Source: Escherichia phage vB_Eco_Jura
Length of the DNA: 64,000 nt
Reading direction: 5' to 3' (one strand)
Sequence record: LR999871
Below are positions 44,775-59,045 of this stretch, piece by piece. Numbering within the stretch: the stretch's first letter is position 1; the number at the start of each line of letters is the position of its first letter. A program made the position numbers and the translations under genes. The notes beneath the pieces are model-generated. The model searched no databases. It was not told the origin of the DNA and saw only the letters and a program-made list of their open reading frames with translations.

Positions 44775-44797
44775 GGGAGCCAAATGGCTCCCTTTTT
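44775..44797 (+). terminator. rho-independent terminator
   Basis: Stem GGGAGCC/GGCTCCC with loop AAAT, then TTTTT. Confidence 0.6.
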
Positions 44798-45491: not shown

Positions 45492-45510
45492 GTTGCTTCG
45501 CAACTTATGG
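45492..45510 (+). promoter_or_regulatory. hairpin promoter candidate 1 (virion-RNAP type)
   Basis: GTTGC-TTC-GCAAC (5-bp stem, 3-nt loop) then CTTATGG; shares the 16-nt pattern GCT[CT]CGC-NN-CTT[TA]TGG with two other copies. 46 nt upstream of the ATG at 45556. Confidence 0.45.
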
Positions 45511-45894: not shown

Positions 45895-45918
45895 GGAGGC
45901 TCCTCGGAGTCTCCTTTT
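45895..45918 (+). terminator. rho-independent terminator
   Basis: Stem GGAGGCTC/GAGTCTCC (one G-U) with loop CTCG, then TTTT; 13 nt after the 45882 stop. Confidence 0.5.
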
Positions 45919-45960: not shown

Positions 45961-45979
45961 GAAGCTCCGCTTCTTTTGG
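45961..45979 (+). promoter_or_regulatory. hairpin promoter candidate 2 (virion-RNAP type)
   Basis: GAAGC-TCC-GCTTC (5-bp stem, 3-nt loop) then CTTTTGG; core GCTCCGC-NN-CTTTTGG identical to copy 3. Confidence 0.45.
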
Positions 45980-49553: not shown

Positions 49554-49930
49554 AAGAAGTATTCGTATTTGGTTCTAACCTTGCTGGTGTACATGGTGCA
49601 GGTGCTGCAAAGACAGCATATAAGAAACATGGAGCCAGATGGGGTAAAGGGCATGGTCATTATGGTGACAGCTACGCTATTCCCACTAAAGATACCAATA
49701 TCAAAACGATGACTATTGAAGACATTCGTACATTTGTAAACGCCTTCATTGTCTATGCTGCTAATCATCCAGAACTTAACTTTAAAGTTACTCGTGTAGG
49801 TTGTGGATTAGCTGGTATTGATGATTCTGTTATGGCCTCTATGTTTGAAAATGCCACTGATAACTGTTCCTTTGACTTAGCATGGAAAAGTTACTTAGGG
49901 GATGATTTCAACTACTGGGGAACGTTCTAA
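49544..49930 (+). CDS. hypothetical protein with N-terminal glycine-rich loop (128 aa)
   Basis: ATG preceded by AGGAG; N-terminus VFVFGSNLAGVHGAGAAKTA...GDSYAIPTK looks like a beta-strand plus Gly-rich nucleotide-binding loop; family not resolved. Confidence 0.5.
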   Translation: MQMKEVFVFGSNLAGVHGAGAAKTAYKKHGARWGKGHGHYGDSYAIPTKDTNIKTMTIEDIRTFVNAFIVYAANHPELNFKVTRVGCGLAGIDDSVMASMFENATDNCSFDLAWKSYLGDDFNYWGTF

Positions 49931-49947
49931 CTCATACGTTAGGCAAT

Positions 49948-49968
49948 AAGCTGCTCCGCAGCTTTTGG
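49948..49968 (+). promoter_or_regulatory. hairpin promoter candidate 3 (virion-RNAP type), upstream of the RNAP subunit genes
   Basis: AAGCTGC-TCC-GCAGCTT (7-bp stem, 3-nt loop) then TTGG; core GCTCCGC-AG-CTTTTGG; 37 nt before the ATG at 50005. Confidence 0.45.
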
Positions 49969-50004
49969 TAATTAATATGTTTAACCAATTTTGGAGAATA
50001 TGCG

Positions 50005-50817
50005 ATGTCTACTATCGAACATCAGATGCACCTCGAAAAGCTGTACAACAAGAACCAACTGTTACCAAGAATGCGTCAGGAGTTTGAAGAAAACTCTGGT
50101 ATTGATTTCAAAGCCTTCTTTGCACATATAGGCATTGATTACAAATTTGGCATTGATGCAATGGTTCAAATGGCTCTGCATAAGCGAGCTGACCTACCAA
50201 CATTAGTTGGTACATTGCGTCATCATTGCAAATCTGCACAGGAAGTAGCAGACAACCTTTTTAAGATGGCAAGTGAGGATTGCTTTAACTTTGACCCGAC
50301 CATCGACAAGTTCATTGTCATTTATACAATCAGCGATGACGTACAGCATGAACTGGATTCATTTCAATATCCACTACCTATGGTAGTACGTCCTAAGCTG
50401 TTAACTAAGAATTATGGTACTGGGTACTTCACATGTAATAAGAGTGTGATTCTTAAGAAGAACCATACTGACGATGACATCTGCTTAGACCATCTGAACC
50501 GTATGAACAAGATTCCATTGTCTATCAATTGGGATGTAGCTCATATGGTTAAAAATGAATGGGCTAATCTGGATAAACCGAAAGAAGGTGAAACTCGTCA
50601 GGAGTTTGAAAAACGTGTACGTGCATTCCAGAAATATGACCGTACTGCACATGAAGTAATGGGTTTATTGACCCAGGAAGGCAATAAGTTCTATCTGACT
50701 CATCGTCCGGATAAACGTGGTCGTACCTATTGCCAAGGTTATCATGTAACATACCAGGGAACTTCTTGGTGTAAAGCCGTGATTGAACTTGCTGATAAGG
50801 AACTTATCAATGATTAA
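50005..50817 (+). CDS. phage RNA polymerase, small (N-terminal-type) subunit, 270 aa
   Basis: ATG preceded by GGAGAA. Assigned from its pairing with the catalytic-subunit gene downstream and the 270/404-aa sizes I recall for the N4 two-subunit enzyme; no catalytic motif expected here. Confidence 0.55.
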   Translation: MSTIEHQMHLEKLYNKNQLLPRMRQEFEENSGIDFKAFFAHIGIDYKFGIDAMVQMALHKRADLPTLVGTLRHHCKSAQEVADNLFKMASEDCFNFDPTIDKFIVIYTISDDVQHELDSFQYPLPMVVRPKLLTKNYGTGYFTCNKSVILKKNHTDDDICLDHLNRMNKIPLSINWDVAHMVKNEWANLDKPKEGETRQEFEKRVRAFQKYDRTAHEVMGLLTQEGNKFYLTHRPDKRGRTYCQGYHVTYQGTSWCKAVIELADKELIND

Positions 50818-51319
50818 AGACAGAATGCCTATGGGTTACTGGAACAAACCAATAGAAGAATTAGCAATAGCTCACCCAAAAGAAGCTGCTAATAGTGCTA
50901 GTGGTTACATACGTATATCCAGAAACAATAGGATTCATTATTTACATCGTTGGTTGTGGGAACAAAAACATGGTGCTATCCCTGCTGGACACACCATTGA
51001 CCATCTTAATGGAATCCGGACTGATTGCCGTTGGGAAAACATGCGTTGTATCCCTTGGGCAATTAACTTACGTAATAGTACAAAGCGTGCTGATAACACG
51101 TCAGGAGTAACAGGTGTCTCACTATGGAAATCTCCAAAAGGAGTGTTCTGGAGAGCAACTTGTACTGACAACTTAACAGGAAAACAACGATGTAAGGTGT
51201 TTTCCATAAATAAATACGGTTACAACTTTGCATTTGAATTAGCATGTGATGCTCGTGCCGATATGATTGAACGCCTGAACCAACAAGGTGCAGGTTATAC
51301 CGACCGTCACGGTCAATAA
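50810..51319 (+). CDS. HNH homing endonuclease with AP2-like DNA-binding domain
   Basis: Track start 50783 trimmed to the ATG at 50810 (after AAGGA, overlapping the upstream stop). HNH core GHTIDHLNGIRTDCRWENMRCIPWAINLRN; C-terminal SGVTGVSLWKSPKGVFWRA is AP2-like. Confidence 0.75.
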   Translation: MIKDRMPMGYWNKPIEELAIAHPKEAANSASGYIRISRNNRIHYLHRWLWEQKHGAIPAGHTIDHLNGIRTDCRWENMRCIPWAINLRNSTKRADNTSGVTGVSLWKSPKGVFWRATCTDNLTGKQRCKVFSINKYGYNFAFELACDARADMIERLNQQGAGYTDRHGQ

Positions 51320-51331
51320 TCCCTATAAGCA

Positions 51332-51352
51332 GGCTCTCCATAGTGGGGAGCC
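51332..51352 (+). other. 8-bp hairpin in the RNA leader of the catalytic RNAP subunit gene
   Basis: GGCTCTCC/GGGGAGCC (one G-U) with loop ATAGT, followed by an A/G-rich SD region rather than a T tract. Confidence 0.4.
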
Positions 51353-51373
51353 AAGAAGCAAGAGGAATATACA

Positions 51374-52588
51374 ATGCAAACTTTTACTGCCCGTGAATAT
51401 CTGAAAATTGACATTGCTAATAACTATGGTCTGGATAAAGAAGACTGGGATGACCGTATTGCATGGTTCGATAAGAATGAGAACAACCTGCTGAACCTTG
51501 TAAGAGAAGCTGAAGAACCAGCCCTGTTCTATGCTGGTGTTAAAGCATGGATGGACGTTAAGGAAGGTAAGCCAATTGGTTATCCTGTTGCACTGGATGC
51601 TACATCATCTGGTCTACAGATTCTGGCTTGCCTGACTGGTGACCGTAGAGCTGCTGAACTATGTAACGTTGTTAACTATCGTGATGAAAGTGGCAAAGTT
51701 AAACGTCGTGATGCTTATACAGTTATCTACAACAAGATGCTGAACACTCTTGGTAAAGGTGCTCGTATCAAACGTAATGACTGTAAACAAGCAATCATGA
51801 CTGCTCTGTATGGTTCAGAGGCTAAACCAAAGGAAGTATTTGGTGAAGGCATTATGCTCAACGTATTTGAAAGCACAATGAATGTGGAAGCACCTGCTGT
51901 ATGGGAATTGAATAAATTCTGGTTACAGTGTGGTAATCCAGAGGCTTTCGTATATCACTGGGTAATGCCAGATGGCTTTAACGTATATATCAAAGTAATG
52001 GTAAATGAAGTGGAGACTGTCCACTTCTTAGATAAGCCGTATGACTGTGTTCGTAAAGTACAAGGTACTGAAGAGAAGACTCGTATGCTATCTGCCAATA
52101 CCACCCACTCTATTGATGGCCTAGTAGTACGTGAGCTGGTTCGTCGTTGTGACTATGACAAGAACCAGATTGAATACATCAAGGCTCTTTGCAATGGTGA
52201 AGCTGAATATAAGACTTCTGAAAAGAACTATGGCAAAGCAATGGAACTGTGGGGCTACTATGAGAAGACAGGATTCCTGACTGCTCGTATCTTTGATTAT
52301 CTGGATTCTGAAACTATTAAATTAGTAAATACTCAGGACATTCTAGACCTGATTGAATCCATGCCTAAGAAACCATTCCATGTACTCACTGTACATGACT
52401 GCTTCCGTTGCCTGCCTAACTATGGCAATGACATTCGTCGTCAGTACAACAACCTGTTAGCTACTATTGCTAAAGGTGACTTACTATCTTTCATTATGAG
52501 CCAGGTTCTAGGCCAAGAAGTTACTATTGGCAAACTAGACCCGACTCTATGGGAAGATGTATTAGAAACCGAATACGCTCTATCTTAA
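51374..52588 (+). CDS. phage RNA polymerase, catalytic subunit (T7-like palm), 404 aa
   Basis: ATG preceded by AGAGGAA. T7 RNAP-type motifs in order: PVALDATSSGLQ (motif A, D...SG-Q), RNDCKQAIMTALYGS (motif B, R-x3-K-x7-YG), VHDCF (motif C). Confidence 0.8.
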   Translation: MQTFTAREYLKIDIANNYGLDKEDWDDRIAWFDKNENNLLNLVREAEEPALFYAGVKAWMDVKEGKPIGYPVALDATSSGLQILACLTGDRRAAELCNVVNYRDESGKVKRRDAYTVIYNKMLNTLGKGARIKRNDCKQAIMTALYGSEAKPKEVFGEGIMLNVFESTMNVEAPAVWELNKFWLQCGNPEAFVYHWVMPDGFNVYIKVMVNEVETVHFLDKPYDCVRKVQGTEEKTRMLSANTTHSIDGLVVRELVRRCDYDKNQIEYIKALCNGEAEYKTSEKNYGKAMELWGYYEKTGFLTARIFDYLDSETIKLVNTQDILDLIESMPKKPFHVLTVHDCFRCLPNYGNDIRRQYNNLLATIAKGDLLSFIMSQVLGQEVTIGKLDPTLWEDVLETEYALS

Positions 52589-52594
52589 TAACTA

Positions 52595-52627
52595 AGGCTA
52601 TCCCTACGGGGGTAGCCTTTATTTTTT
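52595..52627 (+). terminator. strong rho-independent terminator after the RNAP genes
   Basis: 10-bp stem AGGCTATCCC/GGGGGTAGCCT (one G-U), loop TACG, then TTATTTTTTT. Confidence 0.7.
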
Positions 52628-52672
52628 TAGTAAATCATAATGGATAGGCATTTAACCTATGAGGAAATTAAA

Positions 52673-53512
52673 ATGCCTGTTCTTAAAGTGATGTTCCATA
52701 AAGACACCAACGTAGCTACTGTACTGGATGCCAGTGGTAGCCTTAGTGATGGTTCCGTTGAGGTGGGTACTTTCCATCATCCTGATGAAACCTATCCCGA
52801 TAGTGTAACTATCTATCATGGTGTACGTGACCTGCTGTATAAACGCAGTGCTAAAGACCCATCTCAAACTGCTTCTTACCCAAATAACATTATCAATATG
52901 CAAGTTATCAGTATTGATATGAAGGCAACTCCTCGCCTGATTTTGGGTACTGCATTGCCTCGTGTAATCTCTACTATTGAAGGTAAAGATGTAACCTGGC
53001 ATGTAGATGTTGCTGGTGGTAAAGCACCATTGACTTACAAGTGGCAGTTTAAAGCTAATACTGTAGGTGCTGCTTTCGCTGATATTGATTCCGGAGAGAA
53101 TCCTACAGCTAAAACTGCAACTCTTATTAATCATGCAGTAACTGCTGAATCTGCTGGTACTTATAAAGTCATCGTTACTGATGCTAACGGTACTACTATC
53201 GAGAGTTCTTCTCTGCTGGTTGTAGGAGTTCAGGAACCACCTGAAGTAGCTTCTATTGTTGCTTATCCAAGTCCACTGGCTCTATCAGTAGCTGATGATA
53301 TTACCAATGGTAAAACAGTTAAGTTTTCTTCCCTGCCTGCTGGCTCTTTGATTGGTACTCTGTCCATTAAGACCCAGCCTGACAGTGGTAAAGCTACTGC
53401 TGAGATTAGTGGTAATGTACTGACAGTTAAACCTGTAGCCGCAGGTGACACTACTGTAGTGGTCACCAACGGAACCAAGGAAGTAACTGTTACGGTTAAT
53501 GTTACAGAGTAA
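52673..53512 (+). CDS. Ig-like domain protein, capsid decoration candidate (279 aa)
   Basis: Track ATG at 52640 has no SD; ATG at 52673 follows GAGGAAA. Thr/Val/Ser-rich beta-strand pattern (VTAESAGTYKVIVTDANGTT; VTNGTKEVTVTVNVTE) typical of Ig-like (BIG2-type) domains. Confidence 0.6.
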   Translation: MPVLKVMFHKDTNVATVLDASGSLSDGSVEVGTFHHPDETYPDSVTIYHGVRDLLYKRSAKDPSQTASYPNNIINMQVISIDMKATPRLILGTALPRVISTIEGKDVTWHVDVAGGKAPLTYKWQFKANTVGAAFADIDSGENPTAKTATLINHAVTAESAGTYKVIVTDANGTTIESSSLLVVGVQEPPEVASIVAYPSPLALSVADDITNGKTVKFSSLPAGSLIGTLSIKTQPDSGKATAEISGNVLTVKPVAAGDTTVVVTNGTKEVTVTVNVTE

Positions 53513-58947: not shown

Positions 58948-59022
58948 GGTGTTTACAGTAATGGGGCTATATAGTAGCCCCATTTATGGAAATTCCTTTC
59001 TCCATTGCTTAGTCCCAACTAT

Positions 59023-59045
59023 GCCCACTTTATGTGGGCTTTTTT
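59023..59045 (+). terminator. rho-independent terminator
   Basis: Stem GCCCAC/GTGGGC, loop TTTAT, then TTTTTT; preceded by a second hairpin at 58963-58981. Confidence 0.65.

Follow-up and report, generated by a model that had tools for sequence, protein, structure and literature searches.

Stem-loops between the genes of polycistronic messages can act as decay barriers or as processing boundaries, examples being the REP hairpins in malEFG and the hairpins of the puf operon. A T7-type RNase III site needs a duplex of about 20 bp, i.e. about two helical turns. In T4-type phages, promoter-early stem-loops (PeSLs) reportedly flank variable genes, as Arbiol, Comeau and Krisch are said to have described in 2010.

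Hairpins are also found next to phage polymerase genes. The gene 43 operator of T4 and RB69 consists of a hairpin upstream of the ribosome-binding site together with a sequence that overlaps this site, and RNase E processing is conserved upstream of T4 gene 32 (PMC3014915). In Aeromonas phage 25, an endonuclease insertion splits a polymerase gene, and a very stable hairpin directly upstream of the seg43(25) ribosome-binding site abuts this site without sequestering it (PMC2988022). In coliphage N4, gp15 and gp16 are the two halves of a heterodimeric, T7-like RNA polymerase II, which transcribes the middle genes (PMC4496689). RNA 3′ ends have been mapped in the N4-like phage LUZ7: the majority coincide with stable structures, an intrinsic terminator is predicted for only 14 of 61, and polymerases often read through (PMC9163698). 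In the literature that we searched, we found no RNA-end or expression data for the Enquatrovirinae, N4 and the G7C-type phages included. Here, we describe a hairpin that separates a homing endonuclease gene from the gp16 homologue in a close relative of N4.

A stable hairpin inside the early operon

We analysed a stretch of 64,000 nucleotides (hereafter the window) from Escherichia phage vB_Eco_Jura (sequence record LR999871), an N4-like coliphage (Enquatrovirus) that is about 98% identical to N4. Window positions correspond to the N4 coordinate + 45402. From 49900 to 52700, the identity to N4 and 14 other Enquatrovirus records amounts to 97.7-98.8%. The early region comprises the following features.

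Near 45495: early promoter P1, a canonical hairpin around the template-strand heptamer
Near 45964: early promoter P2, likewise a canonical hairpin around this heptamer
49949-49967, + strand: early promoter P3 of the N4 virion RNA polymerase, AGCTGC-TCC-GCAGCT-TTTT-G (rules in PMC4496689)
50005-50817, + strand: RNAP1 (N4 gp15, 270 aa), with residues 1-242 identical to N4 and the last 28 chimeric
50810-51319, + strand: free-standing homing endonuclease gene of 169 aa (HNH_3 + AP2), the ATG of which overlaps the RNAP1 stop codon (ATGATTAA)
51329-51359, + strand: full conserved leader element, GC-A-(hairpin)-AAGAA-GC
51332-51352, + strand: hairpin with arms GGCTCTCCA and TGGGGAGCC and the 3-nt loop TAG, the stem of 9 bp having one G-U pair and an A-U pair that closes the loop
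51361-51366 and 51374-51376, + strand: Shine-Dalgarno sequence (SD) AGAGGA and ATG of RNAP2, the hairpin ending 8 nt before the SD
51374-52588, + strand: RNAP2 (N4 gp16, 404 aa), the palm/fingers subunit of the heterodimeric RNA polymerase II, N4-type (PMC4496689)
52594-52629, + strand: terminator, a hairpin followed by a T run, closing the RNAP1-HNH-RNAP2 unit

The heptamer GCGRAGC, characteristic of virion RNA polymerase promoters, is present on the template strand of the early region only at 45495, 45964 and 49953, and the P3 hairpin sequence ends 38 nt upstream of the RNAP1 ATG. No promoter-like element was seen between the hairpin and the RNAP2 ATG. Since P3 lies upstream and a terminator is found at 52594, the hairpin is predicted to lie inside a single early transcription unit, in the order P3, RNAP1 (gp15), HNH, hairpin, RNAP2 (gp16) and terminator.

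Read directly from the sequence, the hairpin (GGCTCTCCATAGTGGGGAGCC) has the layout GGCTCTCC(A)-TAG-(T)GGGGAGCC. The eight pairs of the GC-rich stem reported in a preliminary description of this DNA are all present, one of them being a G-U pair, and an additional A-U pair brings the stem to 9 bp. The spacing given in that description was also confirmed, with 12 nt between the end of the HNH stop codon (51319) and the stem, and 21 nt (previously about 20) between the end of the stem, at position -22, and the RNAP2 ATG at 51374. The flanks are A/U-rich on the 5′ side and A/G-rich on the 3′ side. With RNAfold, the segment 51328-51356 reached -15.8 kcal/mol (z = -3.87), and none of 200 dinucleotide shuffles was as stable; with its flanks, the hairpin reached -18.4 kcal/mol (z = -2.4). 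Hairpins of equal stability numbered 12 per strand in the real window versus 1-5 in four dinucleotide shuffles, and the probability of finding one by chance in this 54-nt spacer is about 0.003. The hairpin is real and non-random. Its 21-mer is single-copy in the 64-kb window, even when 3 mismatches are allowed, and Rfam covariance models run against both strands of 51200-51480 gave no match at E ≤ 10.

We compared the hairpin with the features of an intrinsic terminator. A GC-rich stem-loop is present (9 bp, -15.8 kcal/mol) and a T/U tract is absent, the 13 nt directly 3′ of the stem (AAGAAGCAAGAGG) containing not a single T. Accordingly, a terminator scan of the region, which returned 32 sites (20 on the + strand), did not include 51332-51352. 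The strongest terminator-like sites of the + strand (5-6 G-C pairs), e.g. those at 45895, 46481, 47924, 52594, 53534, 53937, 55013, 59023 and 60744, are each followed by a T run. Compared with the terminators of the same genome, the hairpin has a stem of similar stability (-16 versus -14 to -20 kcal/mol), but it has no T tract and stands 21 nt upstream of a gene that needs to be co-expressed. Because it lacks a U tract, the hairpin is unlikely to be an intrinsic terminator, as the preliminary description had argued, and this class was ruled out. An RNase III site was rejected as well: the duplex is too short, comprising 9 bp at most, to which RNAfold adds just 2 marginal outer pairs.

Comparison of RNAP2 leaders in N4-like phages

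We compared the sequences preceding RNAP2 in annotated phages, in IMG/VR contigs retrieved by an RNAP2 profile search, and in metagenomic contigs. They share the architecture (AT)GC-(A)-stem-loop-stem′-A(A)GAnn-GC-(0-4 nt)-SD-ATG, in which the stem takes the following forms.

AGCC / GGCT: N4 (4 bp)
GAGCC / GGCTC: phiG17, UE-S5a, L094, L102 and L104
GGGC / GCCC: L087-L089 and L095
GGG / CCC: Kpn16-P2
GGTTT / GAACC: L098 and L099
GGCA / TGCC: L133
GGCTCTCCA / TGGGGAGCC: the window and Gamaleyavirus phages ('type B')

There are thus at least seven different stems, and the 3′ end of every one of them lies 18-21 nt before the RNAP2 ATG. Across alleles, the stem measures 3-9 bp and the loop, which is A/U-rich, 3-6 nt; the short alleles (3-5 bp) have local stabilities of about -2 to -5 kcal/mol. 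All alleles have the flanks GC...A(A)GAnnGC in common, and for some alleles RNAfold predicts that the outer GC/GC pairs are closed. The window has the same flanks on both sides and a distance of 21 nt, at the upper end of the range.

The pairing was assessed on a MAFFT alignment of 14 distinct alleles that had not been fitted to the structure. In this set of few and related sequences, the paired cells amounted to 82.9%, versus 58.8% after shuffling (0/500 shuffles), and the covariation score was 0.60, versus 0.23 after shuffling (0/500) and at most 0.17 when the partners were slid along the alignment. Both sides had changed in 4 of the 5 pairs. The L133 allele is misaligned by one base, which counts against the structure in this test. 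In two metagenomic type B variants, L023 and L050, a stem mismatch is uncompensated, though L023 can refold in another register. The comparison of leaders gives good support to the view that the hairpin of the window is the local, long 'type B' form of an RNAP2 (gp16) leader stem-loop whose structure is conserved among Enquatrovirinae-type N4-like phages. The phages G7C and Bas96 are devoid of the element, their endonuclease ORF running up to the RNAP2 SD, and the element is for this reason considered non-essential. The structure thus appears to be selected, yet dispensable. It is previously undescribed, and its kind, a leader or intercistronic RNA stem-loop, is unremarkable.

A scan of the metagenomes with the flank pattern returned 66 matches, only six of which were N4-like (L023, L032, L043, L046, L050 plus duplicates); the others were chance occurrences in purine-rich coding sequence. 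The linker motif AAGAMGC occurs 25 times, mostly inside long ORFs and not in spacers when its coordinates are read against the list of ORFs, and is over-represented relative to shuffles. A repeated element was rejected for both parts, the hairpin being single-copy and AAGAMGC not being a recurring intergenic signal.

The hairpin resides in a patch of non-N4 origin

N4 and 14 close relatives lack the HNH_3+AP2 gene and align to the window in two pieces that skip about 560 nt. The divergence from N4 starts at about 50733, upstream of the gene, and extends beyond it, as follows.

About 50733-51361, + strand: patch foreign to the N4 backbone, comprising the 3′ 85 nt of RNAP1, the HNH gene and a Gamaleyavirus-type spacer with the hairpin at its right end

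At the left end of the patch, the last 28 residues of RNAP1 differ from those of N4 by 8 substitutions and one extra residue. The corresponding 85 nt are 67% identical to N4 and 88% identical to the HNH-bearing metagenomic contigs L087/L088, which also contain the nearest relative of the HNH gene (85% aa, 83% nt). At the right end, the spacer is 90-96% identical to those of the type B Gamaleyavirus phages compared (96% for PhAPEC5). The adjoining RNAP2 is about 77% identical to that of the type B Gamaleyavirus phages versus 98.8% to that of N4, the latter value applying to its first 600 nt. The junction falls between ...AAGAAGCAA and GAGGAATATACAATGCAAAC: the Gamaleyavirus-type spacer can be followed through ...CCAAGAAGCAA, where the sequence switches to that of N4 (GAGGAATATACAATGCAAAC). 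Homing with co-conversion of the flanks is a known mechanism (PMC2988022). Most likely, 50733-51361 was replaced by double-strand-break repair with flank co-conversion when the HNH_3+AP2 gene entered the RNAP1/RNAP2 junction. Such a co-conversion would explain how an N4-type genome came to carry a type B hairpin, acquired alongside the HNH gene. The point at which the RNA polymerase is split is a hotspot for at least two unrelated families of homing endonucleases.

The preliminary description had suggested that the hairpin uncouples the expression of the endonuclease from that of the polymerase, or that it is part of the endonuclease target site. The distribution of the two elements lends support to neither suggestion. 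The identical 21-mer precedes RNAP2 in the Gamaleyavirus phages E20, IME11, PhAPEC5, ECBP1, HK2 and pSb-1, whatever lies upstream, except that the HK2 copy has one C-to-T change that retains a G-U pair. The slot upstream of it is occupied by an unrelated 204-aa endonuclease in HK2 and pSb-1, and by small ORFans in E20, IME11, PhAPEC5 and ECBP1. In IMG/VR, the exact 21-mer was found in four isolate genomes only. Conversely, what comes after the closest relatives of the HNH gene varies: an N4-like spacer in UE-S5a, one with the GGGC/GCCC hairpin in L087-L089, one of 29 nt in L091 and, in Burkholderia phage HN03 and in L090, another three to five ORFs. In N4 and phiG17, which have no HNH gene, a shorter hairpin occupies the homologous position. 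Across the genomes compared, the hairpin does not track the HNH lineage, each occurring without the other. We considered the possibility that the small ORFs of E20 and PhAPEC5 were decayed endonucleases, which would tie the type B hairpin to a mobile element; tblastn revealed no similarity, and the idea was abandoned.

Since the 21-mer follows unrelated contents and the HNH relatives precede other sequences, the HNH element does not include the hairpin. From this comparison of gene neighbourhoods, the hairpin belongs to the RNAP2 leader and the HNH gene goes with the 3′ end of RNAP1. In all the genomes compared, the HNH lineage is fused to the 3′ end of RNAP1, and the target of the endonuclease is for this reason more likely to be there than in the hairpin.

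This arrangement can be compared with two of the systems mentioned above. Like the PeSLs, the element is a conserved intergenic stem-loop block that borders a slot with variable gene content; unlike them, it is single-copy rather than a member of a repeated family, and no promoter is associated with it. As in Aeromonas phage 25, a strong hairpin abuts a ribosome-binding site without sequestering it, at an endonuclease insertion where a polymerase gene is split. In that phage, the hairpin precedes the endonuclease gene, whereas here it follows the endonuclease gene and precedes the gene for a polymerase subunit.

Possible functions of the leader stem-loop

We tentatively favour the view, to which we would give slightly less than an even chance, that the hairpin is a non-essential leader stem-loop acting post-transcriptionally on the RNAP2 message, as a decay barrier or processing boundary. 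The hairpin would be transcribed within the early polycistronic mRNA (RNAP1-HNH-RNAP2) that the virion RNA polymerase starts at P3, and would itself neither start nor terminate transcription. It would fold just beyond the footprint of a ribosome halted at the upstream stop codon, 12 nt away, and would border the RNAP2 ribosome-binding site on its 5′ side, between a terminating and an initiating ribosome. Its stem of -16 kcal/mol would block 3′-to-5′ exonucleases and would define a structured end following endonucleolytic cuts in the A/U- or A/G-rich single-stranded stretches on either side. In this way, the stem would determine how long the RNAP1(-HNH) segment persists relative to the RNAP2 segment.

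In common with known decay-barrier stem-loops, the hairpin is stable and GC-rich, has no U tract, lies between two cistrons with A-rich single-stranded flanks and is not needed for coding. It differs from them in that most alleles of the family have only 3-5 bp and in that its position is tied to the downstream start (18-21 nt) and not to the upstream stop. A decay barrier is also consistent with the RNA 3′ ends that are found in LUZ7 at stable structures without canonical terminator motifs (PMC9163698). The alleles of 3-5 bp are too weak to block exonucleases, so that a decay barrier cannot explain why the element is kept throughout the family and would perhaps apply to the 9-bp allele alone. 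Furthermore, the conserved single-stranded flanks (GC...AAGAMGC) are unexplained by a purely passive barrier. The preliminary description had envisaged an RNA processing or stability element; a function at the RNA level, be it in processing, in stability or in translation, continues to be the likeliest class, and the link to the endonuclease is the part that found no support.

We also considered the possibility that the hairpin insulates the ribosome-binding site. Partition-function folding of 260-nt contexts gave a probability of being unpaired of 0.39 for the native ribosome-binding site, versus 0.44-0.65 when the stem was broken or deleted. The hairpin thus does not increase the accessibility of the SD and AUG and, if anything, decreases it, and the insulator was rejected. 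So was an alternative fold sequestering the SD, for which only 4 complementary bases are available (CUCU/AGAG) and which RNAfold does not predict.

If the hairpin had no function of its own, it would be a neutral palindrome kept by descent and passively carried with the HNH gene, serving at most as a patch of homology at the right edge of the variable slot. This explanation is unlikely, though several observations agree with it. The conservation of the spacer within Gamaleyavirus does not exceed that of RNAP2 (88-100% versus 90-96%), two variants have uncompensated mismatches, G7C and Bas96 are without the element, and folding indicates no benefit in accessibility. Yet pairing has been kept through at least seven stem sequences at one fixed position, and the compensatory changes clearly exceed those of the shuffled and slid controls. 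In addition, the spacer of the window is 90-96% identical to that of Gamaleyavirus phages, whereas the imported DNA flanking it is 60-72% identical to the same phages.

The hairpin, the conserved purine-rich linker and the SD might together bind a phage protein (RNAPII, one of its subunits, or an early factor binding single-stranded DNA or RNA), which would tune or repress the translation of gp16. T4 DNA polymerase gp43 acts in this way at an operator made up of a hairpin and the ribosome-binding site (PMC3014915). Such a translational operator is the main rival of the decay barrier, though we regard it as unlikely. The fixed distance to the ATG (18-21 nt), the variable but complementary stems, the A/U-rich loops and the conserved flanks near the SD would all suit an operator, and the element is unique to the RNAP2 gene, as the 21-mer occurs once and AAGAMGC does not recur intergenically. 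The weak alleles of 3-5 bp also make better sense as a recognition fold than as a barrier. The resemblance to the T4/RB69 operators (PMC3014915) extends to the small hairpin with its A/U-rich loop upstream of a polymerase gene, to the single-stranded RNA leading into the SD, and to a stem that differs between related phages. In contrast to the gp43 operators, the loop sequences are not conserved here, no protein partner is known, and the element is missing from some viable relatives, G7C and Bas96 managing without it. Moreover, stems of 3-9 bp and loops of 3-6 nt vary rather widely for a site that a protein recognises specifically, and the binding of purified N4 RNAPII to single-stranded DNA is not sequence-specific (PMC4496689). 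A more specific version, in which the split RNA polymerase II, or an early cofactor, would sense its own level through the hairpin, linker and SD and thereby set the synthesis of gp16, is improbable. If true, this self-sensing operator would be the RNA-polymerase counterpart of the T4 gp43 operator, and the recognition of a hairpin would echo the reading of DNA hairpins by the related virion polymerase.

In outgroups from other subfamilies of the Schitoviridae (LUZ7, Axy24, L112, L114, L123, L127, L135, L146 and L152), a hairpin followed by a T run lies 25-45 nt upstream of RNAP2. A terminator of this type may be the ancestor of the Enquatrovirinae element; alternatively, the outgroup terminator and the Enquatrovirinae element may be independent ways of keeping the two polymerase genes apart. 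Even in degenerate form, a descendant of the RNAP1-RNAP2 terminator could act as a weak attenuator or pause site for the virion RNA polymerase and trim the RNAP2 message. The GC-rich hairpins with a T run in LUZ7, Axy24 and many N4-like IMG/VR contigs speak for such a site, as does the fact that many LUZ7 termination sites are weak and without a canonical motif (PMC9163698). It is nevertheless improbable, given the absence of T in the 13 nt after the stem, in contrast to the T runs of the strongest + strand terminator-like sites nearby, and given that gp15 and gp16 form a heterodimer (PMC4496689), so that a strong polarity between their genes would be wasteful. Termination is furthermore impossible for the alleles of 3-5 bp.

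A hairpin-type DNA promoter, used either by the virion RNA polymerase or by RNAPII in the manner of LUZ7 middle promoters, would provide RNAP2 with a transcript of its own. The geometry does resemble that of LUZ7 middle promoters, which have a GC-rich stem of at least 6 bp, a loop of 3-4 nt and a G start about 15 nt downstream (PMC9163698): the stem has 9 bp, the 3-nt loop is TAG, and Gs are present at 51355 and 51358, i.e. 13 and 16 nt from the loop centre (+13/+16). This match is one of geometry alone. LUZ7-type promoters recur as a family upstream of middle genes, whereas this hairpin is single-copy; the other strong + strand hairpins of the middle region are accompanied by T runs, similar hairpins without a T run do not form a family ahead of the middle genes, and the short alleles do not fit. 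RNAPII is here of the N4 type, and the promoters of N4 RNAPII are AT-rich and sequence-specific instead of being hairpins (PMC4496689, PMC9163698). As for the virion RNA polymerase, its promoters have a stem of 5-7 bp and a 3-nt loop; the loop of our hairpin can be 3 nt, and the stem has 9 bp. The N4 enzyme needs template -12A, a purine at -11, -10G (i.e. a G-R-A loop), a C:G loop-closing pair, -8G and +1C (PMC4496689). Both strands fail these rules, as the loop is CTA on the template strand and TAG on the + strand, closed by A:T in either case, and an N4 virion RNA polymerase promoter was ruled out. The hairpin shares with the N4 P1-P3 hairpins the 3-nt loop and the location in the early region of an N4-type genome; unlike them, it has neither the GRA loop, the C:G closing pair nor the -8G, its stem is longer, and it lacks a TTTT-G initiation tract downstream. 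The true P1-P3 promoters are located elsewhere. Taken together, these features make a promoter of either kind highly improbable.

That the hairpin is part of the homing endonuclease system, as a recognition or cleavage site or as a cis element of the mobile cassette, is hardly credible despite its position 12 nt past the HNH stop codon and inside the imported patch, since hairpin and HNH gene are each found without the other, the invariant neighbour of the latter is the RNAP1 3′ end, whose last 85 nt co-vary with it, a genome bearing an endonuclease normally has no cleavable target, and free-standing endonucleases usually cut a nearby conserved gene (PMC2988022).

Implications

For annotators, the practical consequence is that the hairpin should be called neither a terminator nor a promoter. 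The locus would be a clean natural example of co-conversion, in which a 630-bp patch entered the backbone of a coliphage N4 relative, altered the C-terminus of one subunit of the polymerase and exchanged the regulatory leader of the second. It thereby bears on the notion that mobile nucleases reshuffle regulatory sequence as well as genes. N4-type phages need both halves of their split, T7-like RNA polymerase within minutes of the onset of infection, and a leader of conserved structure before the catalytic half would provide a concrete handle on the post-transcriptional control of that step.

A chimeric RNAP1 beside the homing endonuclease gene

RNAP1 (gp15, 50005-50817), one half of the split T7-like phage RNAPII, is a chimera: it is identical to its N4 counterpart at residues 1-242, and its final 28 residues carry eight substitutions and one extra residue. 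At the DNA level, the 3' end of the gene (50733-50817) shares 88% identity with metagenomic contigs that bear an HNH endonuclease gene, versus 67% with N4. Judged from its sequence, this segment is probably a co-conversion tract, and the altered 3' end may be what protects the genome from the endonuclease that it encodes.

The gp15/gp16 junction as an insertion site

The junction between RNAP1 and the other polymerase half, RNAP2 (gp16), corresponding to 50733-51373 in the window, is an insertion hotspot across Schitoviridae (loci L003-L007, L013-L020, L087-L092 and L100). Its contents are of the following kinds.

Contents of the gp15/gp16 slot
HNH_3+AP2 endonuclease lineage
193-204 aa endonuclease lineage, unrelated to HNH_3+AP2 (HK2, pSb-1, Bas96, G7C)
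ORFans

Among the loci compared, the spacer is bare in N4 and phiG17 alone. In L087, a metagenomic N4-like contig, RNAP1 is flanked on both sides by HNH_3+AP2 genes (1080-1556 and 2386-2895). Insertions at this junction are reminiscent of T4-like phages, where homing endonucleases split polymerase and reductase genes, and the analogy raises the question of whether the split of RNAPII itself might have originated in an endonuclease-type insertion here.

Loss of the leader hairpin and the start of gp16

G7C-type genomes (Bas96, L015 1440-1503; G7C, L100) entirely lack the RNAP2 leader hairpin (51332-51352 in the window), because no more than 2 nt separate the end of their endonuclease ORF from the RNAP2 ATG. 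The hairpin can thus be dispensed with.

The N4-type spacer (L001 2427-2465; L002 2427) contains an in-frame ATG 36 nt upstream of the gp16 start (ATGCAAGCC...), and this ATG has no Shine-Dalgarno sequence 5' of it. It is annotated as the gp16 start codon in the AL25 record, adding 12 residues, which is probably a mis-annotation.

Other hairpins

One 14-mer, GAGCC-AAAT-GGCTC, is present both in the terminator at 44775-44792 (GGGAGCCAAATGGCTCCC followed by TTTTTCTTTT) and in the leader hairpin that precedes RNAP2 in UE-S5a and L102; the match may be a coincidence or point to a common origin. A second strong hairpin (58960-58985; AATGGGGCTA-TATAG-TAGCCCCATT; -16.3 kcal/mol), without a proper T tract, lies within a 113-nt spacer; 40 nt farther on, at 59023, a canonical terminator follows. 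At 7429-7459 and 7556-7586, 127 nt apart, the window has two identical copies of a 31-nt sequence that can form a hairpin, just 5' of four clustered tRNA genes (Asn, Ser, Thr, Pro; 7700-8378).

Many N4-like phages outside Enquatrovirinae have a terminator-like hairpin with a T run 25-45 nt 5' of RNAP2.

Terminator-like hairpins preceding RNAP2
LUZ7, L019 ~1420-1460
Axy24, L016 ~1430-1465
L112, L114, L123, L127, L135, L146, L152

The sequences of these elements imply that the two polymerase subunit genes would be subject to attenuation or separate control.
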